Shown here: one piece after another, positions 15,466-33,874 of the stretch
Layout of the letters: each line of letters opens with the position of its first letter
Position numbering within the stretch: the stretch's first letter is position 1
Assembly (NCBI GenBank): GCA_964385745.1
Contig: CAYLQB010000001.1
Span: 1 to 33,874, forward strand
DNA from: an uncultured Methanosarcinales archaeon
Lineage (GTDB): Archaea > Nanobdellota > Nanobdellia > Woesearchaeales > WAPY01
Reading direction: 5' to 3'
DNA length: 33,874 nt
Notes under the pieces: model-generated
What the model was told of the DNA's origin: nothing
What the model saw: the letters and a program-made list of their open reading frames with translations, nothing else
The model's database searches: none
Translations under genes and position numbers: made by a program

Positions 15466-15473
15466 TTTATAAA
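15466..15473 (+). promoter_or_regulatory. Candidate TATA box (TTTATAAA) for glyS
   Basis: The octamer ends 21 nt before ATG 15495, giving leaderless-type spacing. Confidence 0.45.
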
Positions 15474-15494
15474 GAATCATACTTAACTTAAGGT

Positions 15495-17036: not shown

Positions 17037-17105
17037 ATAATCTTAATTTATAAACAAATAATAAATGATAACAGAGTAACATCAGGATGACAGAGAAGAT
17101 GATTC

Positions 17106-18359: not shown

Positions 18360-18374
18360 TAGAAATTTAGTAAT

Positions 18375-18382
18375 TTTTATAA
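18375..18382. promoter_or_regulatory. Shared near-palindromic TATA element (TTTTATAA) between divergent rfcL and rnp4
   Basis: It lies 22 nt upstream of rnp4 ATG 18405. On the other strand it lies 21 nt upstream of rfcL ATG 18353 and 15 nt upstream of ATG 18359. Confidence 0.4.
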
Positions 18383-18404
18383 GCTTAACGATAATAGTCA
18401 TATT

Positions 18405-18911
18405 ATGGTTAATAGAAATACAAAAGCAGAGCAAAATAAGGAATCAAAGGAGAATAACAAATCAGATAAAAAGATAATAAGCCATGCAGAAAAAACAAAG
18501 GCAAAGAAAATATCAAGAAAACACACTGATAAAAAGAAGTATAGAAAATACAAGAAAAAACCAAGTGAACAGAGAGAGATTGCTCTGTCAAGAATAAAAA
18601 AACTCTTTAATCTGGCGGACAAAGTTGTTAATGAATATAAGGAAGGAGACCTTGACTTTGGAAAGAAATTAGCAAACAGATATGTTGAGATTGCCAGAAG
18701 GATATCAATGAAATACAAGGTCAGGATTCCTTCAGAGCTGAAGAGAAGATTCTGCAAAAAATGTCATTCTTTCTTGATTCCTGGATTAAATGTCAGAGTA
18801 AGAATTCAAGGAAATAAAGTTGTGTATACCTGCCTCGAATGCGGCAATATAATGAGATTCCCCTATGTCAGAGAGATAAAGAAAAAGAGAAAAAGAAGAA
18901 AGATAAAATAA
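18405..18911 (+). CDS. rnp4: RNase P protein component 4 (Rpp21/Rpr2 family)
   Basis: 168-aa ORF. Core is LANRYVEIARRISMKYKVRIPSELKRRFCKKCHSFLIPGLNVRVRIQGNKVVYTCLECGNIMRFPY, the Rpr2 zinc ribbon with C-x2-C...C-x2-C. Flanked by Lys-rich N- and C-terminal extensions. Confidence 0.8.
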   Translation: MVNRNTKAEQNKESKENNKSDKKIISHAEKTKAKKISRKHTDKKKYRKYKKKPSEQREIALSRIKKLFNLADKVVNEYKEGDLDFGKKLANRYVEIARRISMKYKVRIPSELKRRFCKKCHSFLIPGLNVRVRIQGNKVVYTCLECGNIMRFPYVREIKKKRKRRKIK

Positions 18912-18927
18912 AAACAAATTTCAATGT

Positions 18928-19200
18928 TTAGCCCATACAACAATATTTGCCTTTGCTATTTGGGTCAGTCCCTGTGTAAGGAACTGCAATACCACTCGGA
19001 CAGGCACTAGGACTATCTACTGGCAGTTTAGTAGTTCCAGGACAGTATGCTGTTATATTGTTTACACCTTTATGCCACCATATAAACTTTCCTGTAAACG
19101 CTGCCACTAAAACAACAAGAACCAGCAGGGCAATTATTACAATAATAATCACATTAACAGAAAGCTCAGCTCCCTTCTTATTCTCCCTGGATTTAATCAT
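18928..19200 (-). CDS. Small class III signal peptide (pilin-like) protein; candidate structural pilin
   Basis: 90-aa ORF. MIKSRENKKG-AELSVNVIIIVIIALLVLVVLVAAF is followed by a 55-aa domain with 4 Cys. AGGAGGTG lies 5 nt upstream of the ATG, and TTTATAAA lies 72 nt upstream. Confidence 0.55.
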   Translation of the reverse strand: MIKSRENKKGAELSVNVIIIVIIALLVLVVLVAAFTGKFIWWHKGVNNITAYCPGTTKLPVDSPSACPSGIAVPYTGTDPNSKGKYCCMG

Positions 19201-19272
19201 CTAAACACCTCCTTTATTTTGCTTGTTAATTAAACATTAACTTTCTTTCAGTACATTAACAATAAATTAACC

Positions 19273-19280
19273 TTTATAAA
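19273..19280 (-). promoter_or_regulatory. Candidate TATA box (TTTATAAA) upstream of the small pilin-like gene
   Basis: The same octamer as at the other candidate promoters sits in the 134-nt gap upstream of the 18928-19200 gene. It implies a ~50-nt leader containing the Shine-Dalgarno sequence (SD). Confidence 0.35.
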
Positions 19281-19334
19281 CTTTTTTATAATTTTGCAGT
19301 TTTCACTTCCTGCCATTACCCTTGCATAGGATAT

Positions 19335-19880
19335 TTAGTCAAGACATATCTTAAGAGTTATGAGAATGTTGTCCCCTGTGAATGTCTGAATCTTTGTTGG
19401 AAAGGTCTCGTAATTCTGTGATTTACACTCTTTATTTTTAGATGTGAAACTTAAATCATTAATCCTGTGAGCATCATCCTGACCATTTTTATATACTTCA
19501 AAAGTGTAATAATCTCCTTCCTCATCAAAATAAGTTAAGGATTTCTTTATGATAAATTTAACATATTCTAATGAATCTTCTCTGTTTGAAGGGTCATCCG
19601 GGTCCACACAGGATATCAATCTGCTTCCCTTATTATAGGAAAGAGCATCGTCAAGCAGGTCTTCAACAGAATATTTTGAACATTTAGTTGTTGTTCTTAG
19701 AAGTGCATCAACAAAACTCCCTGCTATCATATTCTTTTTTGCCGCAGTTTTGATATTTACAGGAGATTTATTCGAACCAAGACCTAGCTGAAGAAGTATC
19801 AAAAAAGCAAACACAAGCACTACCACAAAAATTGCCAATCCGAATACTTCCATCTGTGCCTTCTTACTGTTCAAATTCAT
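19335..19880 (-). CDS. Class III signal peptide (pilin-like) protein
   Basis: 181-aa ORF. MNLNSKKA-QMEVFGLAIFVVVLVFAFLILL. GAGGT lies 5 nt upstream, and the gene starts 18 nt after the stop of the preceding gene. Confidence 0.55.
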   Translation of the reverse strand: MNLNSKKAQMEVFGLAIFVVVLVFAFLILLQLGLGSNKSPVNIKTAAKKNMIAGSFVDALLRTTTKCSKYSVEDLLDDALSYNKGSRLISCVDPDDPSNREDSLEYVKFIIKKSLTYFDEEGDYYTFEVYKNGQDDAHRINDLSFTSKNKECKSQNYETFPTKIQTFTGDNILITLKICLD

Positions 19881-19898
19881 CTTTAACCTCTATTATAA

Positions 19899-20393
19899 TT
19901 AACTGTATACTTTAAGTGTTAGTATAGCCAGAGAGTATGAATCAGACGAGACATTATAAATATTGACAGCTATATTCGAAGCATAAGCACTTTTATAATT
20001 TTTAGGAGTATTATTAAACACAGTAATCTCATTATCATCCGGGTATATATCTCTAATTGTTATTAAAGAGTTTCCGAATTTTGAAGTGTAAAATAAATGA
20101 GCATCAGATTCTTTCATTAAATCATGGAAGGCCAGTAGTTTATAATAATCAAAGCAGTTCTTTGTTGAATAATCATTACACCTTAACTCTGGGAGTGAGA
20201 CAATCTGGGATATTCCAATCATCCTCAAAGTTTTAACACTTTGAAACTGCTCGTTAAGAGCTGCCTCCTGTGACTTTATATAAAAACTGTAACCAAAGAG
20301 CATCATAAAAGAGAAAACAATCAAAACTACCATTATCTCCATTATCCTTATTTGAGCCGTCTTATTTAACTTGAGACCTCTTCTCAATAACAT
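19899..20393 (-). CDS. Class III signal peptide (pilin-like) protein
   Basis: 164-aa ORF. MLLRRGLKLNKTA-QIRIMEIMVVLIVFSFMMLFG. AAGGAGGT lies 6 nt upstream. Confidence 0.55.
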   Translation of the reverse strand: MLLRRGLKLNKTAQIRIMEIMVVLIVFSFMMLFGYSFYIKSQEAALNEQFQSVKTLRMIGISQIVSLPELRCNDYSTKNCFDYYKLLAFHDLMKESDAHLFYTSKFGNSLITIRDIYPDDNEITVFNNTPKNYKSAYASNIAVNIYNVSSDSYSLAILTLKVYS

Positions 20394-20458
20394 AATACAA
20401 CCTCCTTGATTATACCTAACGGATTTTTGACAAATTCTCAGTAAATTTTATCTATTTA

Positions 20459-21535
20459 TTAATACATTTCAGGACAGGAATTATAGATTAACCCCTCATT
20501 AAAGGAGTTTATCTTATTAAGCTCATCATATAAATCTTTTATTTCATTTAGTTTAATATCCTCAATTCTTTCTGCTCTTATATTATTAACTGAAACATCT
20601 GTATCTTTCAGGAGAGGTAAAGCCCGCTCCAGCCCTGTTAAACAATCAGGGCTTAATTCTGAGTCAGTCACTAACTTAGAGTATCTCAAATAATAGATTT
20701 TGATAGAATAATGAAGTTTCTTGAGCAAATTATTAAAATTACAATCATATATCTCTTTATCAGATACTGAAGCAGCTGTTAAAGTTGAGAGTCCAATATA
20801 AAAAGAAACTCCCTCCCTTTCTACTTTTTCACCATATCCTAGAATAGTGTAATAAGTCAGATTTCCAATATTATTATATTTGGACCCTGACTGGCTGGAA
20901 TATGGCTTAACATAAATGAGGGTAACATCTTTATTTGTAACAGATTCTAAGTCATATGCGGTTGGCTTAACGAAACTGATTATCCTCACTTTACTCTTAT
21001 ATCTATTCGCTGTTGATATTGCGTTTTTTAAGCCATTACTTGAACCATCAAATTGCTCAACATTAAGCCCAACAGGAAGATCTGATTTTATATCTTCAAT
21101 CAAATCCTGACTAACTTTATTAGTATTGTTAATAAATATAAATTTTGTTTCTGGTTCAACGAGCATAATCAAGTTCGTAACATAGAAAGGAACTTCAAAT
21201 TTTTTTGTGAACAAAAAAAGCTGTCCGAGTTGAGGATTCAATTCTTTATTCGAGAATATATTCATATTTAAGGAGGAACCCCCAAAAATCTTAATTCCTC
21301 TGCAAGAATTTTCTATCTTAGCACCTGCTGTTTTTATAGTAACCTCTGTCTCATCACCAGAAGAAAAACTCTGAATAGTAGTCCTAATCCTTGAACCCAC
21401 CTCAAGGTTGAGCTTTGCCTCTGAGATTGCCTTATGAAACATTGCAATCCTCAAAAACATCATCAATATTAGAACTCCAACGATAATAACAAAAATCCAA
21501 GCTATCTGACTGGCCACAACACCTCTTTTCGCCAA
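20459..21535 (-). CDS. Pilin-like N-terminus fused to a ~320-aa extracellular domain, function unknown
   Basis: 358-aa ORF. MAKRGVVAS-QIAWIFVIIVGVLILMMFL. The TTG start is supported by GGAGGTGGTG 2 nt upstream. Confidence 0.5.
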   Translation of the reverse strand: MAKRGVVASQIAWIFVIIVGVLILMMFLRIAMFHKAISEAKLNLEVGSRIRTTIQSFSSGDETEVTIKTAGAKIENSCRGIKIFGGSSLNMNIFSNKELNPQLGQLFLFTKKFEVPFYVTNLIMLVEPETKFIFINNTNKVSQDLIEDIKSDLPVGLNVEQFDGSSNGLKNAISTANRYKSKVRIISFVKPTAYDLESVTNKDVTLIYVKPYSSQSGSKYNNIGNLTYYTILGYGEKVEREGVSFYIGLSTLTAASVSDKEIYDCNFNNLLKKLHYSIKIYYLRYSKLVTDSELSPDCLTGLERALPLLKDTDVSVNNIRAERIEDIKLNEIKDLYDELNKINSFNEGLIYNSCPEMY

Positions 21536-21567
21536 AACACCACCTCCAGAAATGCGTTATCTTAACT

Positions 21568-24500
21568 TCATTTCCCTTTCTTGCGTGAGCTCCCCTTGGT
21601 TCGGCGGTTCTTACTTTTACTTTTCTGCTCGGCTAAATCTTTAAGTTTCTTGTAAACATCTTCTCCTTTCGTTTTTTTGGACAACCTGTTAAGTTCTCTA
21701 CCTACATCTTTCCCCTTAATTCTATTCCCAAGTTTATCCAACCTTTCCCAAACATCACTCTGATTTATACTTTTCTTCTCTTTAGGAAGCTCTATTTCTA
21801 TAATCTCCTGCTCATTGGGTTGTTTGTTACTTACAGAATTTGCCGCTTCAGGAGGACGATTAACACTCTTTTTCTTGTTAGTTTTAATATTCTTACTCTG
21901 GTCTGTCTTTTTAGACGTCTTAAACGCATCCATTAATTTTCTTCTCTCCTCTTCTATCCTGGCCCTTCTTCTTATTAAAGCCAGTTCATCAGGTGTCAGG
22001 GGAGTTGCCTGCTTATACTGCCCGCTTGTATATTCTGAAGTAGGTTGGGAGCCCTGTGTCTTACCTGTGTAAGAAGTTTGTTTCGGAGTTGAATAACCTC
22101 TTAAGCTAACTGTATGAGTACTTTCCTTCTGTGGCTTTTTATGAGTTTTATTCTTACTTAATTGTGTATAAGCAAAGAATCCAACAACCCCTAATATGAT
22201 AATTAATATAAGTATCCATAAGAACATTTTAGAATGACCCTCTGGATGACTATCTGGATCATTCGGGTCGGTCCCGGCATTATACTCCTGACCGTCACTA
22301 AAACCATCCCCATCTGAATCAGCAACATGAGGGTCAGTATTCAATCTGTATTCTTCTATATTAGTCAGACCATCTTTGTCAGGATCCTCATTTGCATCAC
22401 TTGGATCATTGGGGTTGAGGCCATGGTTAATTTCCCAAGTATCAGGCATACCATCATTATCACTATCTTCTACTTTCGGAGAAGGTGTTTCATTCTTTTG
22501 ATTATCTGAGCAACCATCAACATCAACTTCTGCACCCCTCTCTGTTCCCGGACATAAGTCATCTTCATTTGGGACACCATCACAATCAGAATCAATAGAT
22601 TCATCACAGGTTTTAACTTCTTTTTTACAAACGCCATTATCACAGTTGTTGCTCTTACAATCTAAATTATTATTACATTGCTCTCCAATACTGCAGGGAC
22701 CGCATAAAGAACCACCACAATCAATATCTGTCTCATCATTATCAAGTTTACCATCATTACAGTGATTTGTTTCGTTCTTTTTATTAGAAAGAAAATCGCA
22801 CTCATTGGTTTCATTGCAATAACCACCTGATAAACAATCAGAGTCCTGCTCACAATGCAAGCCGTAACCTAAATTACATCTTTTAGCGCATATATTACCA
22901 CCACAATCAACATCTGTTTCATTATTATCTGGATTCCACACATGATTAAAACATGGACTTTCAAGTATTACTGCACTCTTGTTCATAAAAACACCATTAC
23001 TCCGTACAGGAGCAGACAAAATATTTCTGCCATAATTATCCTTTGCGTTACTAGTTACCCAGACCTTAAAATAATATGTTTTATTATATTCTAAATTAAG
23101 ATTATGAGCAGTAATCCAATCCTGAGTCCAGGGAATCTTCCTTAAAGTAATAATCTGTTCACCATCCTCCTCATCACTAGCTTCAGGTGGTTTCCCTTCA
23201 TAAACCACATACCTGATTTCTTTAAGTCCTGACTCCTTATCATTAGCGTACACTTTAAACCTTAACTTATTAAGGTCTGCTGACTGTTCAGGATTCTCAT
23301 ATCTAGTAGAATCATTTACATAATAAATAACCGGCTTTGAAGAATCAACGATAAAGGAGAAAAGTTTAACAACTGGATTAGAGACACCATAGAATTCACA
23401 GGCAGTTAAAAATTGAAAATTACCTGCATGCAAAACTCTTACTCCTTCACTGAAGAGAGTGTTATCTGGTTCGTCTTCGCTATTCATCTTCCTCCAAAGA
23501 TTGGATTCGCCATTACCTAATGCAATCATATTACTAAATTGGGTTGGGGTAATAGAATAAGGATCAGCAGCAGTGTTATTAGAATAAAAGCAAGCAGCAA
23601 CATTTCTGTTTGTTTTGACCTTTATCATAACATGAGTCCCATAAGTCGAAGTGTTTGATAACCATATTGGAACTTTGGGTTCAATCAAGGTTACGGTTGG
23701 GATAGCATTGGTGTCTGTTGAGAAGTGAATCCTAACTGGATCTGAGAGGTCGTCGGAGTGACTCTTGCACTGCACAACATAATTATAATCTGTTTTGTCA
23801 TTTAGGTTATTAAAAGTATAATAATGCGCTGTTGAATAAGTATCATCATTGTCTTCATTTTCTGTACTAAAATGCGACCCTTCAGAATAACTAAGATAAT
23901 CATTCATATAATCAAAAAAGTTGTTGGGCTCAACAGTATACCCCTCAAGTGTATTCTCATCCTCAAGTTTACAGACAGCTTCCAGAGAGGTCTTCAAATA
24001 TAATTTCGTACTTAACTCTTCATTATGGTAATAAGAAACAACTGATGGTTCCACTTTATAGGATGTTATTTTTGGGATTCCTGATAGCTTAAAAGTAAGC
24101 TTTTTATCATATTCCCCACCTGAATTGTCTGTACATTTAATATAGAATACGCTTCCTGTTTTAATATTCGCCAGATGCTTAAAAAAGTGTACTTTACCAC
24201 TCTCATCTGTTTCATTAGATTCAAAGAAAGAACCATGATTGTTAGGATTAAAAGCATAATTCTGAGAGTACTTACAAGTGTCCAGGTTAGTTATGTTCGC
24301 AAGTATCTCCAAATCAAATTCGCCTGATGTTGGAAAGACATTGCCTTGACTATCCGCTAAAGGATGTAAAACAATAATACTGCTTGGTGGAAGAATCTTA
24401 ACAGACAGAGTTTCATTACTTTGAACTCCTTTATAGTAAGCAGTTATGTTTGACTCTCCAGTCATTGAAGTTGTGCTGAATGGCTTAAATCTATCATCTG

Positions 24501-26658
24501 GATAAATAATAGGAGAAGGCCTGACGCATTCATAATCAAGATCAAATAATGAAATGTTAGTGAAATTGAAAGATATACCATTTTCACAGGTGATATAATC
24601 AGAGTTATCATCAGAAACTCCAAGGTAATATTCAGTATTTGGGTTTAGAGTGTAATAAAATACATTCGAAAGATAAGAGTACCCATCTGACCATAAAGGA
24701 TAATAATATCCATCATCTTTATAAAACAAGCTTAAATGTATCTCTGATGATGTTAAAGAAGTGTTGATTGTAACACCATCACTCTCTTTGTAATCAGACC
24801 AGAGACCTGCACCATTTTGAACCCTTACCCTGAAGTAATAAGTTGAACCATTCGTTAGGACAACTCCATAATAATTACCTGGTATAAACTGAGCTTCATA
24901 GTTAATAACACCCCCATTACTTTTATTTTCATTATCAATGGTGGCATAATTAACATTTGCTATGAGGGTATCATAGTCAGGACCTTTCTTATAAACCTTA
25001 TACTCATAACCAGATACCCCGGATTGCTCATCCTTCGCGCTGAAACTGAAATCAAGTTGCTTAGGTGTGTTAGTCACATCAGGATTAGATGAGTCAGCAA
25101 CACTATCATCTAACATAGTAATCTCAGGGGGACTTGAATCAACTATGAAATTAACAGAGTCATCAGAACAATCTGCTCCTACACAACATTCAACATAAAT
25201 ATGATGTTCACCATCGCTCAAAGTTTTAGTTTCAGCATAGTGCTCGTAGGGATTATTAGGATTTAATGGCAGAGGAATTTGTTGTGTCTCATTATCAAGA
25301 TAGTAATCACATGTTGCCTGTTTCGTTGTAGTAACATCAAGGTTTGCATTTTCTCCTGCAAAACCATTATTTGCCGGACTTACGATGAATACCTGGAAGG
25401 GTAAGTTCGGATTTACACTTACAGAAACAGAACTTTTCGCTTCAACACCCAAGTAATTTTTACAGATGATATTAAAATCAAAATCAGCATTATCTTCTTT
25501 TGTCTCAAAAATAAAAAAGTGTTCTTTAGAGTATGTACTAGCATCAGAAACATTCTCCTTCGTAAGGTTGTTATAATCAAAAAAGTAATTTTGCATATTA
25601 TCAAAATTAGAAATTTCATCATTGTCTATTTTGCAAACCATATCCTCACTTGTATTGACAAGTATTAAACTTGAGTAATAACCTGAAGGATTACTTTCCG
25701 TTATAATCTGGGGATTCGCAGAAATATAAGTGATTTGTGGAAAAGCATTATCTAAGATAAAAGTGTAATTCTTATAGATAAAATCTCCTCCGGTATCATG
25801 TTGACATTTAACGTAAAAAGTTTTACCGTTAATATAATCCATACTTCCACTTATTTCAAAATCAGAAAAATTAAATTGAGTATTAGTGCTGTCCGATGAC
25901 TGAAAATCCTCCCATGAAACAGACGGGTTCCTCCTCCATTTACATGATGCTGGTGATGATGTGATAACAGATATATTGACAATATTTGAATTGACATGAA
26001 TTTTGTTGTCAGAGTCAGCCATTGGGAGAATTTTAATTATGAAAGGTAGGGGCTCAACAGTCACAGTTTTTGAATCTGATTCTCCAAAATATGTTGCAGT
26101 TATCGTTGCTGACCCCACGCCTGTTGCTGTTATTGTTGATCTGGACAGGTCAATGTTAATCTTATTTGAAGATGAAGTATCAACATTAAGGTTTGAACTG
26201 TGGGTCACATCCTCTCTTGTATTACCATCAAAATAAGCATAAACTTTAAAGAATCCGCTCTGACCTAAAGTAAGAGAATCAACGGTTTCAATACTTAAGC
26301 GAGTAGGTTTTCTCATCGATAAATTAATAGTGAAAAGTGTATATCTCTCTCCATAATTACCAAACAGGTCCATATACTCAATGCTAAAATTATAAGTATG
26401 CTTATCAACTAAAGAAGTATACGGTTGATAAGTAAAGGAGGTATTATCATCTGACTGCGAAATCAGATTAAGAGCCACCTGGTTGGAATTGCTAGTGTCA
26501 AGAAGAGACGCATCCAAGACCGTGACTGAATCGGTGAAATTAGCAATTATGGATGGTGTTTGAGTGGTTACCACTACAGTGGCGCAGACAGTTTTTAACT
26601 GAAATAAAAGCAGGAATAACAATATCAAAAAGAAAATTTCCTTATTGTTCTTCAACAT
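21568..26658 (-). CDS. Giant type I membrane surface protein (1696 aa) with Sec signal, Ig-like repeats, Cys-knot modules, TSP3-like Ca-binding repeats, one TM helix and a basic cytoplasmic tail
   Basis: Features in order:
- Signal peptide MLKNNKEIFFLILLFLLLFQLKTVCA.
- Big_2-like ITATGVGSATITATY.
- Two homologous ~550-600-aa supermodules.
- Two ETD[VI]DCGG Cys modules (22609-22959).
- D-x-D-x-DG repeats such as DSDCDGVPNEDDLCP and DSDGDGFSDGQEY (22228-22608).
- TM helix MFLWILILIIILGVVGFFAY (22168-22227).
- A 199-aa K/S/T/Q-rich tail.
GGAGGT lies 6 nt upstream of the ATG. Confidence 0.85.
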   Translation of the reverse strand: MLKNNKEIFFLILLFLLLFQLKTVCATVVVTTQTPSIIANFTDSVTVLDASLLDTSNSNQVALNLISQSDDNTSFTYQPYTSLVDKHTYNFSIEYMDLFGNYGERYTLFTINLSMRKPTRLSIETVDSLTLGQSGFFKVYAYFDGNTREDVTHSSNLNVDTSSSNKINIDLSRSTITATGVGSATITATYFGESDSKTVTVEPLPFIIKILPMADSDNKIHVNSNIVNISVITSSPASCKWRRNPSVSWEDFQSSDSTNTQFNFSDFEISGSMDYINGKTFYVKCQHDTGGDFIYKNYTFILDNAFPQITYISANPQIITESNPSGYYSSLILVNTSEDMVCKIDNDEISNFDNMQNYFFDYNNLTKENVSDASTYSKEHFFIFETKEDNADFDFNIICKNYLGVEAKSSVSVSVNPNLPFQVFIVSPANNGFAGENANLDVTTTKQATCDYYLDNETQQIPLPLNPNNPYEHYAETKTLSDGEHHIYVECCVGADCSDDSVNFIVDSSPPEITMLDDSVADSSNPDVTNTPKQLDFSFSAKDEQSGVSGYEYKVYKKGPDYDTLIANVNYATIDNENKSNGGVINYEAQFIPGNYYGVVLTNGSTYYFRVRVQNGAGLWSDYKESDGVTINTSLTSSEIHLSLFYKDDGYYYPLWSDGYSYLSNVFYYTLNPNTEYYLGVSDDNSDYITCENGISFNFTNISLFDLDYECVRPSPIIYPDDRFKPFSTTSMTGESNITAYYKGVQSNETLSVKILPPSSIIVLHPLADSQGNVFPTSGEFDLEILANITNLDTCKYSQNYAFNPNNHGSFFESNETDESGKVHFFKHLANIKTGSVFYIKCTDNSGGEYDKKLTFKLSGIPKITSYKVEPSVVSYYHNEELSTKLYLKTSLEAVCKLEDENTLEGYTVEPNNFFDYMNDYLSYSEGSHFSTENEDNDDTYSTAHYYTFNNLNDKTDYNYVVQCKSHSDDLSDPVRIHFSTDTNAIPTVTLIEPKVPIWLSNTSTYGTHVMIKVKTNRNVAACFYSNNTAADPYSITPTQFSNMIALGNGESNLWRKMNSEDEPDNTLFSEGVRVLHAGNFQFLTACEFYGVSNPVVKLFSFIVDSSKPVIYYVNDSTRYENPEQSADLNKLRFKVYANDKESGLKEIRYVVYEGKPPEASDEEDGEQIITLRKIPWTQDWITAHNLNLEYNKTYYFKVWVTSNAKDNYGRNILSAPVRSNGVFMNKSAVILESPCFNHVWNPDNNETDVDCGGNICAKRCNLGYGLHCEQDSDCLSGGYCNETNECDFLSNKKNETNHCNDGKLDNDETDIDCGGSLCGPCSIGEQCNNNLDCKSNNCDNGVCKKEVKTCDESIDSDCDGVPNEDDLCPGTERGAEVDVDGCSDNQKNETPSPKVEDSDNDGMPDTWEINHGLNPNDPSDANEDPDKDGLTNIEEYRLNTDPHVADSDGDGFSDGQEYNAGTDPNDPDSHPEGHSKMFLWILILIIILGVVGFFAYTQLSKNKTHKKPQKESTHTVSLRGYSTPKQTSYTGKTQGSQPTSEYTSGQYKQATPLTPDELALIRRRARIEEERRKLMDAFKTSKKTDQSKNIKTNKKKSVNRPPEAANSVSNKQPNEQEIIEIELPKEKKSINQSDVWERLDKLGNRIKGKDVGRELNRLSKKTKGEDVYKKLKDLAEQKSKSKNRRTKGSSRKKGK

Positions 26659-26695
26659 ATTATGACCTCCATAAAAATCATTCTTACTTTTAAGT

Positions 26696-29563
26696 TTAGT
26701 GTATTATAATAGTTACTTCCGGTGCAGTCATGTAAACGGCAAAATTAATACCATTAATATCTTTATTATCAACCGGCCCGCCGTTTAAGGTAGCATTAAC
26801 AACAAACTCACCTAGAATACCCCTCAAATCTGCGATTTTTTTATCATTATTGTCTGTTTTGTCAAGTGTAAATGTATACCTACAATAATCATTACCACAG
26901 TTAAGTTCATTAAGAGGTTTCAGCAGTACGCCATCTTCACCATTTCGTATTTTCAGATAAATACTGTTTATCTTAACTCCTGGGGTGAAGTCAGCACGAA
27001 CATTATAATGACCCCAAGTAAGCAGAGGAATCTTTGTGTTTGAGTATTTAACAGGGCTAACAGTCAGGTTGATGTACCCCTTCCCAATGCCCTTAACAAG
27101 TAATTGCCTATAAAGTTCATCTTTTCCATCTTCAGATTTACAGTCCAGATTCATAATATAAGTGCAGGGCGTGACATTATAAAAATTAACAAACATAAAA
27201 GATGAAATCCTCCCTGAAGTGTCCGATGTCGGCTCGGAAAGGATAGGTGGGTATATTGTATAAGAACAAGTCGCTCTTTTGGAAAGCTGTACAAAGGCGG
27301 ATAAATTATAAATGTCTGAGGCATTGGAGAATCTAAACAGATAATTAACTATAGACAAGTTCGACCTTGCCAAATAAAACCTTACTGTGTTTAAATTACT
27401 ATGAGTACCGAATTGATCAGTTGTAATATATCTTAAATAATAAACCCCATTATTTGCAAGAGAGAGAACAGGATTTTTGAAGAGATTAATGTTAAAACTC
27501 CTCCTATCTTCTGAAAGGTTAGCAGAAGTATCAGGACAGCACAAACCATCAGAGTCAACACAGTAAGAGGCATTGACTAAACTAATATATTGGGGAGCAC
27601 TATCACTAACCTTAAAGGATAATACAGGATTATTCCCATTGATTACTAAATTGTTATTTAAACAGGTTATGTCAGTAGGTTTGGTATCATTTATACAATT
27701 TTCATAATCAACATTTTCGGTGTTGATGCAATCTGCTTCTGAATCTCCATTCGCATCTTTAACGCATTTATTGTTTATCCAACGACAAACACCCAGACCG
27801 CATGAATCAGTGCTTCTCGCAGGCAGACAAGAGTTTGATGAGTCCCAGCCAGAACCCTCGCAGGCCTGTTCGGTTGAATAATCCTCACATCTTACATGGT
27901 CAGAGCATGCCTCACATCCAGATGATGACATGACACACTTTCCCAACAAACTACAATCAGAGGGCGTGCAGTTCATAAAGAGACCATTACAAACATCACA
28001 ATTACTCTGAGTACTCACTTCAGGATAACATATCCCTTTATTAAGCTCGGTGTTAGTGTCCTTCCAACTGCAGTTAAGCCCACAACTGTTACCTAAACAA
28101 GCATCCTTTGAATCAAGATCATAACAGGTTAATGAATCACAATCTTTACATGCATCCAATATTGTGTTTGAATAATCATAATAACAGAAGTCATTAGTAT
28201 TCAAACAAGTACCTTCATCATAAAATAAACCAAGAGGATTGCCTGAGTTGGCACAGATATTTGGTTTCTTGCAGGTTGTCTTATGATTAGGGAGTTCTAC
28301 ACATACTGCATTATAGTTACTACAATTATATGATACTCCCTCTGAGAGCGGAGCAAATGCCAGGTGATTATCCTCATCGCATGACATTCTCAAATTAGCA
28401 TCCAGGGCATCTTTCTCTTCTCCATTATAACAGAACTCATAATTAGGGAGAACACCTTCACACAGAGGATTACCTGTCATTATTGAAGCAGTTAAGGGCT
28501 CTGACAGAGAACCATCAGAATGAACAATATAAATGGAGTAATTATATCCTGTATCCCACTGGGTAGTTTTATCAACCAGAGAAGTAGCATACGGTGGAAG
28601 CATCTCATTAAAATTTGAGTTTTTTCTTTTTATCATATAACCATTAAAATCATTACACTCGTGAGGTACTGACCATATTAATTTTACAAATGGCTTACCT
28701 CTCAGGGGCTCAGCCGAAAAACCCACATTATCCAGATTACAGGAAATCTCTCCTTCACTCACAAGCGTAAAATTAACTTCTTCTTGTCCATTATCAGTCA
28801 AGGTGATAAAGGTCGAAGAGGGGGCATATTTCATACCCGCTGTTATTTTCATTGCAGTTAATGTGTACCTATCATTAGGTAAATTAATTAATTTATAAAA
28901 GCCATTTTCATCCGATAAGACCGTGTAACTATGCTCATCTGAATATGCAATAACCCTTGAATAAGCAATCGGACTGGACTCCTCATCTTTAATATAACCA
29001 TAAATAACTCCCTCTCCCATTACATTTGGTGGCTGAACAGGTTGTTGCTCATTCTCCACACAAAAACCAGATTCTTGATCACAGAATAAACCCGCTGCTG
29101 TACATAAATCAGTACCACACTCCGAGCAATTAGACACAAGTTCTCCATTGGATTTACAATAATACATTGAATTTTCAATACATCCGACTCCATAATTTTC
29201 TGTGCAGTCATACGAATAATCCTGGGGTATATGCCTACATTCATTAGCATTATTTATCTCCGGATGAAATACACCTTCCATATCATCACACCAAGAATTA
29301 GTTTCGAAATAAGGATGTATAACATTAATATTATCTATTACAAAACAACAACCCTTTTGGGCGTAATACTGTAAAGCGGGGTCATTGCAGTCAGCTTCTA
29401 CATAAAAACCATTGTTACATTCAGCTTCAACCGATGCAGGAGTAACACCCATATTATTATTGTGAACACAACAGCCAGCACTTACTGTTTGGGCGAGAAT
29501 AAGAAACGAGCCAAACACAACAAGGATTAAAAGTATTTCTGAAAAAAGTTTGCTTGTCTTCAT
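26696..29563 (-). CDS. Cysteine-rich secreted protein (955 aa) with a CarboxypepD_reg-like beta-sandwich and an FN3-like domain
   Basis: Start is taken at ATG 29563 (MKTSKLFSEILLILVVFGSFLILAQTVSA-GCC), which has AGAGGTG 6 nt upstream; the ORF-track start at 29596 has none. I count 58 Cys. GVIYGYIKDEESSPIAYSRVIAY...DENGFYKLINLPNDRYTLTA looks like a carboxypeptidase-regulatory-like fold. There is no C-terminal TM helix. Confidence 0.8.
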   Translation of the reverse strand: MKTSKLFSEILLILVVFGSFLILAQTVSAGCCVHNNNMGVTPASVEAECNNGFYVEADCNDPALQYYAQKGCCFVIDNINVIHPYFETNSWCDDMEGVFHPEINNANECRHIPQDYSYDCTENYGVGCIENSMYYCKSNGELVSNCSECGTDLCTAAGLFCDQESGFCVENEQQPVQPPNVMGEGVIYGYIKDEESSPIAYSRVIAYSDEHSYTVLSDENGFYKLINLPNDRYTLTAMKITAGMKYAPSSTFITLTDNGQEEVNFTLVSEGEISCNLDNVGFSAEPLRGKPFVKLIWSVPHECNDFNGYMIKRKNSNFNEMLPPYATSLVDKTTQWDTGYNYSIYIVHSDGSLSEPLTASIMTGNPLCEGVLPNYEFCYNGEEKDALDANLRMSCDEDNHLAFAPLSEGVSYNCSNYNAVCVELPNHKTTCKKPNICANSGNPLGLFYDEGTCLNTNDFCYYDYSNTILDACKDCDSLTCYDLDSKDACLGNSCGLNCSWKDTNTELNKGICYPEVSTQSNCDVCNGLFMNCTPSDCSLLGKCVMSSSGCEACSDHVRCEDYSTEQACEGSGWDSSNSCLPARSTDSCGLGVCRWINNKCVKDANGDSEADCINTENVDYENCINDTKPTDITCLNNNLVINGNNPVLSFKVSDSAPQYISLVNASYCVDSDGLCCPDTSANLSEDRRSFNINLFKNPVLSLANNGVYYLRYITTDQFGTHSNLNTVRFYLARSNLSIVNYLFRFSNASDIYNLSAFVQLSKRATCSYTIYPPILSEPTSDTSGRISSFMFVNFYNVTPCTYIMNLDCKSEDGKDELYRQLLVKGIGKGYINLTVSPVKYSNTKIPLLTWGHYNVRADFTPGVKINSIYLKIRNGEDGVLLKPLNELNCGNDYCRYTFTLDKTDNNDKKIADLRGILGEFVVNATLNGGPVDNKDINGINFAVYMTAPEVTIIIH

Positions 29564-29859
29564 AAACGACACCTCTTTTATGATTAATTCTTTCAATACA
29601 CAAATGGACTAAACTTCAATGCATAACATAAAAATAGGTCAAAACTTGTTATATAACTTATTTTTATGCATCACATTAATTTATACACTAACAAAATATA
29701 TTATTATTTAAATCTTTCTAAATTAGGTAGGAAATAACAGAAGAAATAAGACATAACAGGAGCATAGCAGGAAACAACGAGGAGAGGTAAAGAACTGCCC
29801 AGGAGGACTTTAGGAATAGATTATATTTCTTACTTGCCTTTATTGATTAAAAGACCTCC

Positions 29860-31254
29860 CTATTTACATATTAAATTAGAAGTACAATGACCCATAGCAC
29901 CTGAAGCGAGATTACATGTCTCACCAGGTTGTTTACCTTTATAAGTATCATCGCAGCAGGTCCCGCAACACTCAACACTTATATTTATCTCCTGCCAATC
30001 AGATTCCTTGGAAAGATCATAAACAGAAATTGTGTAGGTAACATTTTTACCTATGAAACTGGCGTTCGGTTTGAAAATATTTGTCTGAATTAAATCATTA
30101 TCCATGTCCTTAATTAATATAAATGTATAATCTTCGTCAGGATCAACAGAGCAGTTTGTAAAATTGATATACTGCATACTGTTATGACATATCGCAGGAT
30201 TAGTTCCAATAGGATTATCAATCCGCTGATAACAATATTTTCCATCACTGTTTTTTTTATTCAGATTCTTTAACACAGGCGGCCTGTTCTGCCTGAGGAA
30301 ATAGAATGTATAAGGACTCCCATCCTTCCACTTAAAAGAGTAATCCTTAACAGCGATAACATCATATAATTTTCCGTCAATAACTTTTTCAACATGAATA
30401 CTGTTAGGATAAGCGTATTCTGCTGTAGTATCACTAATATCAAAACTTGCATCGTTGACATCAGAAATAACTGCCTTGTTTACAACATCATAAATTCTCC
30501 TAAAATCTAACTGAACTTCATATGATTTAGCAGAAATGACTTTGTTGAAAAATTTAACAGGATAATAAATCTTAAAGCCAACTGCCTTTCTATCAAATGA
30601 AACATTAACATAAGGTGCTCCGACAAGGGATAATTCGCCATTGAAGGTTTTATTTAAACTCTTAAGGTCGAAGCAGTTCTCAAAGTCATTAAGGACAAAA
30701 CTCTCTATATCTCTCTTAATTGTAGGATAGGAAGGACCAAGCGGGTGAATCCTACTCTGTTCCAATAGAGGAAGATAAGGATAACCACAAGAACCGAACA
30801 GGGGATAAGAAGGCGGGAGGTCATAAGTACTGGCCAAAATCCAATAACTCATATAAAATCTGGACTTCTTTATTTTAACCTGATTACCAACTAATCTAAT
30901 GCCATTTATGGAAAAATCATCAGGTGTCCTACCTCCCTGTGTTTTGAGTATGTAACCTCCTTGTTCACCGATAAGTTTTAATGATCTCTCTGCAGAATTT
31001 TTAAGGCAATTCTGCATTTGAGTATCAATGGATAACAACCCCTTCTGATAGGAAGAAGAGAGGATACCACTCCTGAGAGTGTTTTTATAATGAGAATAGG
31101 ACAAGAGAAAGAGAACCAAAAAAACAACAAATATAACAACACCCACAACCGCAAATATGAAAATCTGCGATTTCCTGTTTATTAATAAAGTCCTGTTGCT
31201 TTTAACAAGCCCTTTTCTGTTTACTCTCTCCCTCTTAAATCTGCCGAACAACAA
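29860..31254 (-). CDS. Pilin-like N-terminus fused to a ~400-aa extracellular domain ending in a Cys cluster
   Basis: 464-aa ORF. A basic N-terminus is followed by NRKS-QIFIFAVVGVVIFVVFLVLFLL. C-terminus is ECCGTCCDDTYKGKQPGETCNLASGAMGHCTSNLICK. TTG start with AGAGGTG 7 nt upstream. Confidence 0.55.
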   Translation of the reverse strand: MLFGRFKRERVNRKGLVKSNRTLLINRKSQIFIFAVVGVVIFVVFLVLFLLSYSHYKNTLRSGILSSSYQKGLLSIDTQMQNCLKNSAERSLKLIGEQGGYILKTQGGRTPDDFSINGIRLVGNQVKIKKSRFYMSYWILASTYDLPPSYPLFGSCGYPYLPLLEQSRIHPLGPSYPTIKRDIESFVLNDFENCFDLKSLNKTFNGELSLVGAPYVNVSFDRKAVGFKIYYPVKFFNKVISAKSYEVQLDFRRIYDVVNKAVISDVNDASFDISDTTAEYAYPNSIHVEKVIDGKLYDVIAVKDYSFKWKDGSPYTFYFLRQNRPPVLKNLNKKNSDGKYCYQRIDNPIGTNPAICHNSMQYINFTNCSVDPDEDYTFILIKDMDNDLIQTNIFKPNASFIGKNVTYTISVYDLSKESDWQEINISVECCGTCCDDTYKGKQPGETCNLASGAMGHCTSNLICK

Positions 31255-31357
31255 CCAACCACACCTCTTTTTTAAGTTAAATCAACAACAATACAACAAG
31301 TATACAACAATACAAAACAAAGGAATATAAAAAGGTTTTGATAGAACAAACACAAGG

Positions 31358-31364
31358 AAAAAAA
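31358..31364 (-). terminator. Oligo-T tract (T7 on the minus strand) after the partial Cys-rich gene
   Basis: Plus-strand A7 begins 27 nt downstream of the minus-strand stop codon at 31391-31393. Archaeal termination commonly uses oligo-T tracts. Confidence 0.3.
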
Positions 31365-31390
31365 TCTTTCGAGAGTTTTGAGAGACACCT

Positions 31391-33874
31391 CTACCCTGAA
31401 GAAGGTATTGGTTCAATGTCGTAACAACAGCATACTTTACTGGAATCCGGACAGTTCCCAGAACCCCTTTCAGCAAAAATATCCCACTTTTTCCCATTAC
31501 TATTAGTATATGTACCTGACTGACCACAAACAGGTCCCTTACTTTGAGGAGTAACACAAGAACAACCTGCACGACCGGAATGGCCTGTACATGTATCAGA
31601 TGAGGAGGTAGGCGTACAATAACCCTTCGCAGAAGAAGGACAGTCCTTAACACATAGTGTTACCGGACGAACAGGGTTTTGATTATTATCACAATCATAA
31701 ATTAAATGGATAGGAATTATAGGATTTCCCTCACTGTCCTCAGCAGGATTAGCATCACAACAAGTGCATTCCTGCCCAGATGGGCATGTTTCAACTTTAG
31801 AAGGAGCGACACACGCACCATTGGAACATATACCATTCTTACCATCATTCGTAACACAGGAAGTACCATCTGCTTTATTAGAATGCCTACAAGGACCAGT
31901 AACAATAGAATCCTCCTCATCAAGACATTCACCGGACGTTATATCCTTCCTATAACAATGAATCTTCCTCTTACTACTACATGAATCAGTAGTACAAGGA
32001 TTATTATCATTACACTCAGAATCTGAATGGCAAGGACAATCAGGGCAACTCGCAGGGGTTTCACCAGAATCACAACGATTATTATGATTACAAACAGGAG
32101 GAAGATTATTTGAACAAGCACTCATATCAAACTTGCAAGTAGCATGATTACACTTCAAATTACCCCTCTTATAACCTAACTTAACACAAGTCTCACCACC
32201 CAAAACATCCTTACCCTGCACATCGTAATCACAATCCTCACCAGGATCAATAACACCATTACCACACTTACTAACAGGAGGATTATTAACACAACCATTC
32301 TCAGTACAGACCTCATTAGCATTGCAAACCTGACTTGTAAATGAACAAACACCAGCAGCAGAACCTTGCTCATTGCATCGTGCATTGTAAAAACATGTGT
32401 TGACACCATGCACAATCGCTGAATAAGATTGGCAGCAGTCAGTAGCATCACCACAAGGTTGACCACTCTGCGAACATTGACCATTATTCCGTTGTTTCAC
32501 ACACGCACCATTGACTTCTACACAAGAATAACCTGCAGGGGGCGGCACATCAAGACAATTCATACCTGGGTTAAAATCAACACAGTCCTGACCACACCAT
32601 TGACAATTTAAATGGCAATCATGGGGGCAACTCTGATGTGTCTCACCAGAATCACAGACACCATTATTATTACAGAGAGGACCGGGATTAGCTACACATT
32701 GACCATCATAACAGACATGATTACTAGAACAAGCAACCTCATTATTCCAACCAGAACCATCAGCTTTACAAACTTTATAATGAGTGTCATCAACACATTC
32801 TGCACTATTAGCATAACAAACATGGACAGGGCACTCTCCTGATGTCATATCAGAAACTCTCAAAGAACCTGTCAAATCAGACCAATAATTGATTAAAGGA
32901 GCATCAATATCAGGGGTCTTAAAAGCGAGAACATCATAAGCACAAGTCCCTGAACTAGAGCAAGAACCTTCCTGAATCTTATTAATATCATTACACATAT
33001 TAGTTTCAAAGCCATTGTAGGATAACATCATCAAAGAAGTATCTCCAATTCCATTTACAAATCCAATTATTTCTTTGTTTGCTGAATCCTTTTTTAACAT
33101 AAACAATTTATTGAAGCTTTGAATATTATTTAATTTATCCAAATCTGCACTATTTTGGGAACTAAATAGACCTTTCAAAGCATTAAACAAGGCCTCGAAT
33201 GGATTATTAAAGAATGAGACCCCATTAAAATTAATGCCCTGCTTGCTATAAATTATAAGCTGTAAATCAGGATTATACCAAACATCATTATGATGACAAG
33301 CACTCCAACCATTAGAACTCAAAGTATTATCACAATAATCAGCACTCTTATTAAATAAAATTTCAAGGTAATTGAAAGGAGCTACATCTTCAGCTGTGTT
33401 AACCTTCCAGTTTAGAGGAACACCAATGAGAGTTGGACCATTCCCTATTTTTAAAGCACAAAGGGAAGGAACACAATCAATATCAGGGGGAGCATGAGTC
33501 CAGTCAGCACCATTAAGATTGCAAGTGTTATCCTGGGCAATTATATCAGAAGATTGTATTGGTTCATAATTTAGAAAATTGCTTACCTCTCGAATATTAC
33601 CGCAATATAGAGAATAATCAGAACTGTGCTCTTTATTAACAGCAAAACCAAGCATTGACCTCGCTAACTGCTTTGTTCTGGTTGACCAGACACCATTATC
33701 ACAATAATGGTCAAAGACAAAAGTTCCTGAGTTAACACACTTTGGCTTACTACCCTGACCCTTCTTAAACCATTCCTTAACATCAACAACATCGGGCTTA
33801 CCATTTGGGTCTAACAAACATTGGTCTTGACTGGAACAAGAACCTTCAACACCATCCCAAGTGTATTTCTCAAA
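31391..33874 (-). CDS. Very cysteine-rich extracellular protein, N-terminus outside the window (partial, at least 827 aa)
   Basis: The reading frame stays open from the TTG listed at 33817 up to the window edge (FEKYTWDGVEGSCSSQDQCLLDPNG...), so the gene is truncated by the window. I count about 74 Cys in the last 808 aa. Repeated motifs include NNNGVCDSGETHQSCPHDC, NHNNRCDSGETPASCPDC and CGNGVIDPGEDCD. Confidence 0.8.
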   Translation of the reverse strand, partial: FEKYTWDGVEGSCSSQDQCLLDPNGKPDVVDVKEWFKKGQGSKPKCVNSGTFVFDHYCDNGVWSTRTKQLARSMLGFAVNKEHSSDYSLYCGNIREVSNFLNYEPIQSSDIIAQDNTCNLNGADWTHAPPDIDCVPSLCALKIGNGPTLIGVPLNWKVNTAEDVAPFNYLEILFNKSADYCDNTLSSNGWSACHHNDVWYNPDLQLIIYSKQGINFNGVSFFNNPFEALFNALKGLFSSQNSADLDKLNNIQSFNKLFMLKKDSANKEIIGFVNGIGDTSLMMLSYNGFETNMCNDINKIQEGSCSSSGTCAYDVLAFKTPDIDAPLINYWSDLTGSLRVSDMTSGECPVHVCYANSAECVDDTHYKVCKADGSGWNNEVACSSNHVCYDGQCVANPGPLCNNNGVCDSGETHQSCPHDCHLNCQWCGQDCVDFNPGMNCLDVPPPAGYSCVEVNGACVKQRNNGQCSQSGQPCGDATDCCQSYSAIVHGVNTCFYNARCNEQGSAAGVCSFTSQVCNANEVCTENGCVNNPPVSKCGNGVIDPGEDCDYDVQGKDVLGGETCVKLGYKRGNLKCNHATCKFDMSACSNNLPPVCNHNNRCDSGETPASCPDCPCHSDSECNDNNPCTTDSCSSKRKIHCYRKDITSGECLDEEDSIVTGPCRHSNKADGTSCVTNDGKNGICSNGACVAPSKVETCPSGQECTCCDANPAEDSEGNPIIPIHLIYDCDNNQNPVRPVTLCVKDCPSSAKGYCTPTSSSDTCTGHSGRAGCSCVTPQSKGPVCGQSGTYTNSNGKKWDIFAERGSGNCPDSSKVCCCYDIEPIPSSG

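Follow-up and report, generated by a model that had tools for sequence, protein, structure and literature searches.

A conserved cluster of prepilin-like and giant cysteine-rich protein genes in Woesearchaeota as a candidate attachment apparatus

Gene content of the block

Within the DPANN archaea, Woesearchaeota rank among the most abundant and diverse groups, and no member has been brought into culture. The DNA analysed here, referred to throughout as the window, is a stretch of 33,874 nucleotides (nt) from contig CAYLQB010000001.1 of assembly GCA_964385745.1. Its right-hand part, at 18928-33874, is a block of eight co-directional minus-strand genes (g1 to g8) placed head-to-tail, five of which encode proteins with prepilin-like N-termini, while the other three encode giant cysteine-rich proteins. 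A further prepilin-like gene, g9, lies about 10 kb from the block. The block is homologous to, and syntenic with, a gene cluster present in more than 100 loci. This cluster, which has nine genes here and about 20 in most relatives, is phylum-wide and strongly conserved, and it represents a concrete candidate for an attachment apparatus. Its features in the window are as follows.

g1, 18928-19200, minus strand: small pilin-like protein of 90 residues; GGAGGT ribosome-binding site
Spacer between g1 and g2, 19201-19334, minus strand: 134 nt, with TATA-like TTTATAAA about 75 nt before the g1 ATG, and GGAGGT
g2, 19335-19880, minus strand: pilin-like protein of 181 residues; AGAGGT ribosome-binding site
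g3, 19899-20393, minus strand: pilin-like protein of 164 residues; GGAGGT ribosome-binding site
g4, 20459-21535, minus strand: pilin-like protein of 358 residues; TTG start with a GGAGGTG ribosome-binding site
g5, 21568-26658, minus strand: type I membrane adhesin-like protein of 1696 residues; GGAGGT ribosome-binding site
g6, 26696-29563, minus strand: secreted, cysteine-rich protein of 955 residues from the ATG at 29563; AGAGGTG ribosome-binding site
Spacer between g6 and g7, 29564-29859, minus strand: 296 nt, AT-rich, with TATA-like runs; largest gap of the block
g7, 29860-31254, minus strand: large pilin-like protein of 464 residues; AGAGGTG ribosome-binding site 7 nt before a TTG start
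g8, 31391-33874, minus strand: giant secreted cysteine-rich protein, at least 827 residues in the window; 5' end beyond the window
g9, 8445-8924, minus strand: sixth pilin-like gene, outside the block; 159 residues

The intergenic gaps from g1 to g8 measure 134, 18, 65, 32, 37, 296 and 136 nt, so that the eight minus-strand genes with gaps of 18-296 nt described in an earlier sequence-only reading are borne out by the open reading frame (ORF) coordinates. That reading had also credited every gene with a strong ribosome-binding site. This applies to seven of the eight, with GGAGGT located 5-7 nt upstream of g1, g3, g4 and g5, and AGAGGT ahead of g2, g6 and g7; g8 starts outside the window. In the 34,394-bp contig held at the European Nucleotide Archive (ENA), which extends about 690 nt further at the g8 end, g8 reaches at least 1057 residues and is still cut by the contig end. 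The longest ORF of g6 has 966 residues from an upstream TTG, and the ribosome-binding site favours the ATG that gives 955. Two of the gaps may carry promoters: the 296-nt spacer between g7 and g6 is a possible internal promoter region, and the 134-nt spacer before g1 could hold a separate promoter for the small pilin gene. A gap similar to the latter also precedes the g1-like genes in two related loci, L005 and L037.

The choice of start codon is important for recognising these genes. In the public ENA annotation, internal ATGs are taken as the starts of g3, g4 and g7, giving products of 144, 334 and 385 residues, respectively, and the class III-like (prepilin-type) N-termini are thereby lost. 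The long forms are backed by ribosome-binding sites and by homologues, and the Logan call for g3 is the full 164 residues. This is an annotation trap, in which internal-ATG starts erase the diagnostic N-termini of three genes, and it helps to explain why annotation of these families consists of 'hypothetical' entries only.

Conserved N-terminal junctions

The five pilin-like products of the block (g1, g2, g3, g4 and g7) begin with the same layout, namely a basic stretch, then [KR]-x(0,1)-[G/A/S], and then a hydrophobic segment of 20-27 residues; all five N-termini quoted in the sequence-only reading were found as written. The product of g9 is the sixth with this layout, with the junction VKQA↓QISSQVFIFILAAL (arrows mark the putative cleavage position). 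In all six proteins, the first hydrophobic window starts within a few residues of the junction. The motif occurs in none of the housekeeping proteins of the window. A chance origin was considered and ruled out, given this absence and the near-invariance of the motif in homologues.

For their cut ahead of the H-domain, archaeal prepilin peptidases require a charged residue at position -2 followed by G, A or S at -1 (PMC4371748). Substrates of EppA carry Q at +1 plus an acidic residue at +5, as described in the same source, which confirms the earlier use of Q at +1 as an EppA-substrate mark (PMC4371748). Four of the six window proteins follow the strict class III rule, namely g1 (KG↓A), g2 (KA↓Q), g4 (RG↓V) and g7 (KS↓Q). 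The residue at +1 is Q in four proteins (g2, g3, g7 and g9), A in g1 and V in g4, and the g1-like and g4-like proteins of relatives mostly have Q at this position. A Glu stands at +6 in g3 and at +3 in g2, with none in g7 or g9. Type IV pilins typically conserve an acidic residue where their hydrophobic helix begins or close to it.

The junction is best documented in the g3 family, represented by the window g3 and 103 homologues of 17-61% identity. In this family, K or R occupies -3 in 94% and -2 in 75% of sequences, -1 is G in 64 and A in 34 (thus G or A in 98 of 100 ungapped sequences), Q stands at +1 in 100/100, and E at +6 in 104/104. In the g2 family (alignment A6), K at -2, Q at +1, E at +3, and a G and an L are invariant, and the pattern K-[A/G]↓Q-x-E is kept. 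The alignment of the g7 family (A1, 11 sequences) has S, G or A at -1, with Q at +1 and F at +5 in 10/10 sequences, and g7 homologues down to 23% identity keep [KR][KN][S/G/A]↓Q..F. The g4, g9 and g1 families all place [KR][GA] immediately ahead of the helix. Judged from these alignments, the -1, +1 and Glu positions are under very strong selection across more than 100 homologues, and an ordinary signal anchor is not expected to show such conservation. The class III signal layout proposed in the sequence-only reading thus agrees with the rule and, in addition, has a junction that is near-invariant in homologues.

For g4, that proposal was correct as to a pilin-like N-terminus, but its placement of the junction at VAS-Q probably was not, since the conserved junction K-[KR]-G lies four residues upstream. 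Cleavage at VAS↓Q was accordingly rejected in favour of KRG↓VV, which is conserved in homologues; those with 57% and 38% identity keep K-[KR]-G and the VVASQ after it without change.

A cluster conserved in gene order

The loci that carry organism titles come only from Woesearchaeota or Nanoarchaeota metagenome-assembled genomes (MAGs), or from MAGs titled 'uncultured Methanosarcinales'. A tblastn scan of GTDB species genomes, whose representatives do not include the window contig, gave 27 loci with the g7 alignment, with titles of Woesearchaeota, Nanoarchaeota, Nanoarchaeia or, again, 'uncultured Methanosarcinales'. The last title is carried by L010-L017, L029, L031 and L033, and is probably a placeholder or a wrong taxonomy. 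The earlier guess of a small-genome archaeon fits this distribution, as the relatives are MAGs of Woesearchaeota and Nanoarchaeota, which belong to DPANN.

Where contigs are long enough, the order is a big protein (about 1700-1860 residues), a g7-like protein (770-900 residues), a second big protein (about 2060-2140 residues), and then g9-, g4-, g3- and g2-like genes. The same arrangement can be recognised in a distant syntenic block in L005, a 124.7-kb JGI contig in which the g7 relative has 23% identity. Its order is g8-like, g7-like, a 1669-residue protein, g9-, g4-, g3- and g2-like, small genes, and three tandem g1-like genes, with more genes beyond; the 1669-residue protein is g6-like at its N-terminus and g5-like at its C-terminus. 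In most relatives, the cluster continues past g2 and comprises about 20 co-directional genes, as seen in long contigs with g3 and in 80 metagenome loci anchored on g2. The extra genes past g2 include two of about 260-330 residues, tiny genes of 38-53 residues, one to three g1-like genes, and about eight others. Nearly every product of this extended cluster starts M..[KR][KR][G/A], followed by a hydrophobic helix. The end of the cluster is marked by an RPA-like gene in several loci, tRNA-thiolation-like genes lie upstream in many, and an RNase P subunit gene adjoins the block in the window. Compared on gene order, the window is a reduced version of the cluster, with nine genes and with g9 displaced. 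In one relative, L029, a gene for an MFS/ATG22-like transporter (13650-14903, minus strand) is inserted mid-cluster on the opposite strand.

Conservation of gene order in relatives had been set as a test by the sequence-only reading, and the order is indeed conserved across them, so that the proposal is not refuted on this ground. It also bears on a different explanation, according to which the large proteins belong to an S-layer or to the cell envelope, with the small genes encoding unrelated membrane proteins and being adjacent by chance. This explanation can draw on a weak match between g6 and the model of an anammox S-layer glycoprotein (E = 6e-5, well short of the cut-off and confined to CarboxypepD_reg), on the C-terminal membrane anchor of g5, and on the fact that S-layer-like genes are common in archaeal type IV pilus (T4P) loci (PMC4858521). 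However, large and small genes keep their order from 23% to 57% identity in about 100 loci, which indicates that their adjacency is not accidental, and the TSP3, cadherin-like and PKD-like modules, together with the extreme cysteine content, are typical of adhesins. The large proteins have homologues at the same cluster positions in relatives and are therefore linked to the pilin-like genes rather than being unrelated S-layer genes, a possibility against which the sequence-only reading had cautioned. Chance adjacency to envelope genes is consequently regarded as very unlikely.

Pilin-like families

The smallest product, g1, has the junction NKKG↓AELSVNVIIIVIIALLV; about 27 hydrophobic residues are followed by a knob of about 50 residues with four Cys, ending in ...CCMG. 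An exhaustive search (E <= 1e-3) placed it in a family of 276 representative proteins at 50% clustering, nearly all of 80-100 residues and matched over their full length, in which the C-terminal CC is invariant and two more Cys are nearly so. In relatives, g1-like genes occur as one to three tandem copies, with the start KKAQGLSLN[TV]IIIAA... and a Cys-rich end. Based on these sequence features, g1 is a candidate for the major subunit.

Four further genes form the conserved small to medium set. The product of g2 has the junction SKKA↓QMEVFG, and a tblastn search recovered 81 relatives in JGI metagenome contigs. That of g3 has the junction NKTA↓QIRIME and two Cys that are invariant in the family; a profile search found 233 homologues, and among 120 that were listed, 120/120 are annotated 'hypothetical' and none has a precomputed Pfam domain. 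The largest of the four, g4 (MAKRG↓VVASQIAWIFVIIVG), had only three matches among 5.8e9 proteins in a word-indexed search; two of these lie on short contigs, where the order g5-g4-g3-g2 is kept. Local profiles raised the g4 family to 16 members, each located directly upstream of g3, with the junction K[KR]G↓[VA]VA.Q or KKG↓Q[VIM]E.TFNW. By sequence, g2, g3 and g4 are candidate minor pilins.

The fourth gene, g9, stands in the window between the genes for CCA-adding enzyme and SMC, whereas in relatives its family stands between the giant adhesin and g4. A full-length alignment with 10 homologues at the cluster position shows invariant G32, P75, C82, F116, C138 and G151. About 25 nt ahead of the g9 ATG stands the TATA-like element TTTTTTAAAT; a good Shine-Dalgarno site is lacking, for which reason the transcript may be leaderless.

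The largest pilin-like product, g7, has the junction NRKS↓QIFIF, followed by a long helix, alpha/beta domains, an immunoglobulin (Ig)/cadherin/PKD-like domain and a Cys-rich tail. GxQGG, RQNRPP and DPDED motifs are invariant in its family.

Giant cysteine-rich proteins

The giant products are distinguished by their composition, with cysteine at 9.2% in g8 and 6.0% in g6 compared with 1.0% in the window's housekeeping proteins. In g5, a Sec-type signal peptide is combined with repeated beta-rich modules, two Cys-rich modules of the DxDCGG kind, and Pfam TSP3_bac calcium-binding repeats (E = 4e-15). A C-terminal transmembrane helix (1479-1500) is followed by a K/R-rich tail of 196 residues (52 K/R), predicted to be cytoplasmic, which is conserved in the homologues of L004 and L005. 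An exact-sequence look-up of g5 returned no record. g6 also starts with a Sec-type signal peptide (...LAQTVSA↓GCC) and contains a Pfam CarboxypepD_reg beta-sandwich (E = 9e-10). The description of the large products as secreted or membrane-anchored proteins with calcium-binding modules therefore holds for g5, with its signal peptide, transmembrane helix and TSP3 repeats, and the signal peptide of g6 agrees with it.

BLAST comparison shows that g6 corresponds to the N-terminal and middle part, and g5 to the C-terminal half or part, of a single protein of about 2060-2140 residues in relatives. As g6 and g5 together match this one protein in most Woesearchaeota loci, the gene has been either split or fused. 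For g8, the visible residues 1-343 show homology to the protein encoded ahead of the g7 homologue in L007 (55%), L005 and L019, and this 340-residue domain also matches the C-termini of the proteins of about 1700-1860 residues in L016, L022, L026 and L032. No Pfam, NCBIfam or PDB match was obtained for g8. Its closest homologue (L007 1368-4601; 55% over 343 residues) combines a signal peptide with long Thr/Pro linkers and carries at its C-terminus a Hint/intein-like module (CFPAGTLISL...GVLVHN) that is absent in the window g8. The presence of this module in the L007 protein suggests that the giant protein may be self-processed in some lineages.

Family membership and predicted structure

Searches of Pfam and NCBIfam with the eight proteins of the block and with the accessory proteins of relatives returned generic modules only (TSP3_bac and CarboxypepD_reg). 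The 106 homologues of g1 that were searched match no pilin Pfam family and show scattered weak matches, for example to defensin-like models, and neither g4 nor g9 has a Pfam or NCBIfam match. PDB sequence searches with the g3 profile, g5, g6 and g8 returned nothing. Membership in any named pilin family is thus not established, in line with the earlier statement that, generic modules apart, these proteins could not be assigned to a named family: all the families are without a Pfam, NCBIfam or PDB pilin match. Alignment of the families with one another by hhalign covers only the N-terminal KK[GA]Q and the helix, at 8-76% probability. Common descent was not proven in this way, as the signal is too weak and biased by composition.

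The AlphaFold2 model of g3, built from a 104-sequence alignment, is a confident one, with a predicted local distance difference test (pLDDT) score of 89.7 and a predicted template modelling (pTM) score of 0.70. It consists of one helix of 55 residues (11-65), two short helices and a four-stranded antiparallel sheet, which together give a lollipop shape. The H-domain runs on into the long helix, and the small alpha/beta head that contains the sheet also bears the conserved pair of Cys. The order of these elements is that of a type IV pilin, a likeness that is suggestive at the level of the model. The g7 model (11 sequences; pLDDT 70) has an N-terminal helix of 72 residues (26-97) followed by alpha/beta and Ig-like domains. 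Dystroglycan cadherin-like, PKD, Rib, SraP and RTX-adhesin modules head its Foldseek matches, none of which has E < 1e-3; this is in keeping with the RQNRPP and DPDED motifs of the g7 family.

Genomic neighbourhood

The left 18.9 kb of the window contains archaeal housekeeping genes, as determined by a Pfam scan of the annotated ORFs at positions 1-18900. They encode PolB, endonuclease III, SepF, NMD3, CCA-adding enzyme, SMC, a GT1 glycosyltransferase, PIG-L, a class II aminoacyl-tRNA synthetase, an RFC-like AAA+ protein and RNase P Rpr2. In this region, the longest ORF of the RFC-like gene (17106-18434, minus strand) overlaps the divergent Rpr2 gene (18405-18911, plus strand) by 30 nt; as the public call is shorter, at 417 residues, the ORF has probably been extended too far by its upstream TTG start.

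An integrated virus or other mobile element encoding membrane proteins could account for products that are all ORFans with respect to curated libraries, and a Bro-N gene does lie near the distant g7 homologue in L006. Yet no relative of g2 was found in 2.9 million IMG/VR contigs, compared with 81 in metagenome contigs, and a viral origin was rejected on this basis. The housekeeping neighbours (RPA-like, tRNA-thiolation-like and RNase P subunit genes) recur across loci, the GC content of the block agrees with that of the remainder of the window (about 34%), and no integrase, capsid or terminase gene is present. A mobile element is therefore held to be extremely improbable.

A proposed type IV filament with adhesins

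Taken together, the block and g9 are probably, though with considerable room for doubt, the structural-gene module of a T4P-like type IV filament with adhesins that is specific to Woesearchaeota/Nanoarchaeota, with its machinery encoded elsewhere. According to this model, the six pilin-like products would be inserted by the Sec pathway through their N-terminal helix. A prepilin peptidase of the A24 family (FlaK/PibD/EppA type), encoded elsewhere, would then cut after [KR]-[G/A/S] and leave Q, or A/V, at +1. An ATPase of the FlaI/PilB type and a platform protein of the FlaJ/TadC type, likewise encoded elsewhere, would extract the subunits from the membrane, and the subunits would polymerise through their hydrophobic helix. 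In such a fibre, g1 would be the small Cys-stabilised major subunit, while g9, g4, g3 and g2, in their conserved order, would be minor pilins that prime and cap it. g7 would act as a pilin-anchored Ig/cadherin-like adhesin, and g8, g6 and g5 as giant calcium-binding, disulfide-rich adhesins working with the fibre, with g5 presumably tethered to the cell by its C-terminal transmembrane helix and conserved cytoplasmic tail. The likely use would be attachment to surfaces or to a host cell.

Several observations weigh against this reading. Curated hidden Markov models (HMMs) for pilins and class III signals in Pfam and NCBIfam gave no match at E <= 10, whether to the full-length products or to the N-termini taken alone. 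The models covered include PF04021 (Class_IIIsignal), PF07790 (Pilin_N), archaellin and TIGR02537, and HMMER filters may hide very weak matches. The HMM test proposed with the sequence-only reading (TIGR02537/PF04021-type models) was therefore negative for all N-termini. In the same direction, a Foldseek search of the PDB with the g3 model gave nothing significant (best E 0.22, with no pilin in the top 50). At the junction, g3 (TA↓Q) and g9 (QA↓Q) are without a charged -2, and their K stands at -3; most members of the two families have K or R at -2. KKRG is also the start of the Sec signal peptides that the giant proteins of relatives carry, which means that a basic stretch followed by G is not specific by itself. 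The cluster of relatives, with about 18 distinct pilin-like genes, exceeds the need of any characterised pilus.

The assembly machinery provides a second group of such observations. As the sequence-only reading had stated, and as the Pfam scan of the ORFs at positions 1-18900 and of the block shows, the window has no gene for an assembly ATPase, a platform protein or a prepilin peptidase. No Walker A of the T2SSE type (G..GSGK[ST]T) was found in cluster-linked ORFs of about 120 related loci covering more than 1 Mb; the sole match is a 178-residue ORF in L047, on the opposite strand and outside the cluster. Nor does precomputed Pfam annotation place a T2SSE or T2SSF gene within +/-10 kb of the cluster in L005, L037-L040 or a 537-kb JGI contig. 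Both ends of the cluster abut housekeeping genes in relatives, and hence the motor is not part of the cluster. Pairs of A24 Asp motifs were absent across 120 loci, bar one candidate in L005. This candidate, which counts in favour of the filament, is a polytopic protein of 376 residues (6122-7252), encoded divergently and adjoining the cluster, with the Asp motifs EDLRYGKIRN and SGDAKL. Its sole Pfam match is Peptidase_A24 (E = 2e-4), at 22.2 bits, below the gathering cut-off of 26.5, and it has no NCBIfam or PDB match. The same strand continues after this candidate with HxsD-like and radical SAM genes of His-Xaa-Ser-type maturation (L005 3993-7252, minus strand), which are unrelated to the cluster as far as can be told. 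Also in favour, at the level of the lineage, flaB, flaH, flaI, flaJ and flaK have been detected in most Woesearchaeota MAGs (PMC11606122), which indicates that the required machinery exists there.

The main rival to the filament is a fixed, membrane-anchored surface complex, in which the hydrophobic helices are uncleaved signal anchors of bitopic proteins that join the giant adhesins in an envelope or contact structure. It accounts for the lack of ATPase, platform and peptidase genes in cis (in the window and the inspected loci), for the negative pilin HMM and Foldseek results, for the very many different subunits per cluster, and for KKRG ahead of the ordinary signal peptides of the giant proteins. 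It leaves unexplained, however, the invariant small residue at -1, the Q at +1 and the Glu within the helix across at least 100 homologues. The g3 model, with a continuous 55-residue helix packed on a small sheet, is pilin-like, and the small, tandemly duplicated g1 genes resemble those of a polymer subunit. On balance, a complex of this kind is an unlikely explanation, albeit one to be taken seriously.

Another option is a pseudopilus-type device, an analogue of type II secretion or of the bindosome, in which the pilin-like proteins, in place of a long adhesive pilus, would form a short piston or scaffold for exporting the giant adhesins through the envelope or displaying them. The four conserved pilin-like genes encode products of about 160, 360, 165 and 180 residues, sizes that we take to resemble the GspH/K/I/J set of bacterial type II secretion, and the pilin-like genes are tightly linked to those of giant secreted proteins. 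Class III signals also serve non-pilus assemblies such as the bindosome (PMC4371748). On the other side, no secretion ATPase or platform gene is present in cis, and tandem g1-like copies with their own upstream spacer would suit an abundant fibre subunit. A device of this type is judged distinctly improbable.

A more elaborate form of the assembly may also be envisaged. Up to about 18 prepilin-like subunits and three giant adhesins could form an undescribed heteropolymeric fibre or cell-cell bridge for host contact, specific to Woesearchaeota/Nanoarchaeota and comparable in elaboration to hami or a contact nanotube. With no motor in cis, such a structure might borrow the archaellum-type FlaI/FlaJ/FlaK, which is the sole such machinery reported in these genomes. 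This possibility is speculative and rather unlikely.

Significance of the cluster

Archaeal T4P loci with many minor pilins and adhesins are known as a concept; the families of the present cluster are all without Pfam, NCBIfam or PDB coverage. No paper describing the g1-g9 cluster was found in the literature. The cluster yields defined families (g1 to g9), a processing motif ([KR][KR][G/A]↓Q...E) and antigen candidates, and we infer that its function may be host contact. If the motor is truly provided in trans, detection of type IV filaments that is anchored on the ATPase and platform would systematically miss such systems.

Comparison with known systems

The minor-pilin operons of bacteria are one point of reference. 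Bacterial minor pilins prime assembly and present an adhesin at the tip. Both fimU-pilVWXY1E of Pseudomonas aeruginosa and GspH-I-J-K contain, like the cluster, four minor pilin-like genes of which one is much larger, and by analogy the cluster and the minor-pilin/PilY1 operon both encode a large adhesin together with the pilins and leave the motor genes apart. No homology to the minor-pilin/PilY1 or Gsp systems was detected, so the likeness is one of architecture only. The archaeal host lacks both an outer membrane and a secretin, [KR][GA]↓Q is the putative cleavage motif as against the bacterial G↓F/M...E5, and there are three giant adhesins here as opposed to one PilY1 in the bacterial operon.

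Small pilins of the Flp/Tad type resemble g1, which has a precursor of about 90 residues made up mostly of one hydrophobic helix and occurs as tandem paralogues. One of 106 members of the g1 family gives a weak Flp1_like match (E = 1.3e-3), and no family threshold was reached. Unlike the Flp/Tad pilins, g1 carries a disulfide-rich C-terminal knob of about 50 residues with an invariant terminal CC, and it has no G↓xxxxEY motif.

Within DPANN, 'dark matter' islands have been reported as runs of unannotated genes with signal peptides and were read as fast-evolving pilins (PMC6393860), which is conceptually the reading proposed for the present cluster. Those islands were recognised through adjacent FlaI/TadC genes, whereas the cluster described here is without such neighbours. 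The label 'uncharacterised apparatus' given by the sequence-only reading consequently applies to the families, for which all listed homologues are 'hypothetical', but not to the idea of a DPANN pilin island, which had already been published (PMC6393860).

The archaeal T4P loci of clade/system 1 (Epd-like) contain at least five minor pilins plus large adhesins and are also found in DPANN (PMC4858521; 10.64898/2026.04.22.720090). With the pilin-like proteins described here taken as candidate pilins, the Epd pilus of Methanococcus maripaludis shares with the cluster many (at least five) class III minor pilins and large adhesin-like proteins in one operon, a very small major pilin, Q at +1 after [KR]-G/A (Q being present in four of the six window proteins), a similar subunit complexity, and its reported occurrence in some DPANN. 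Its locus includes the ATPase EpdL, two TadC-like proteins (EpdJ/K) and EppA, in contrast to the window, which has none of them, and to the about 120 related loci, which have no T2SSE-type Walker A. Further differences concern the structural proteins themselves. Epd adhesins have DUF2341, which was not detected in g5, g6 or g8, and pilins of the PF04021 type have no sequence similarity to the pilin-like proteins described here. A conserved Glu occupies +6 in g3 and +3 in g2 instead of +5, the small pilin-like protein has a Cys-knob whereas the Epd major pilin is head-less, and the cluster of most relatives has unusually many pilin-like genes. Among the systems described so far, the clade/system 1 (Epd-like) archaeal pilus is nevertheless the closest in architecture.

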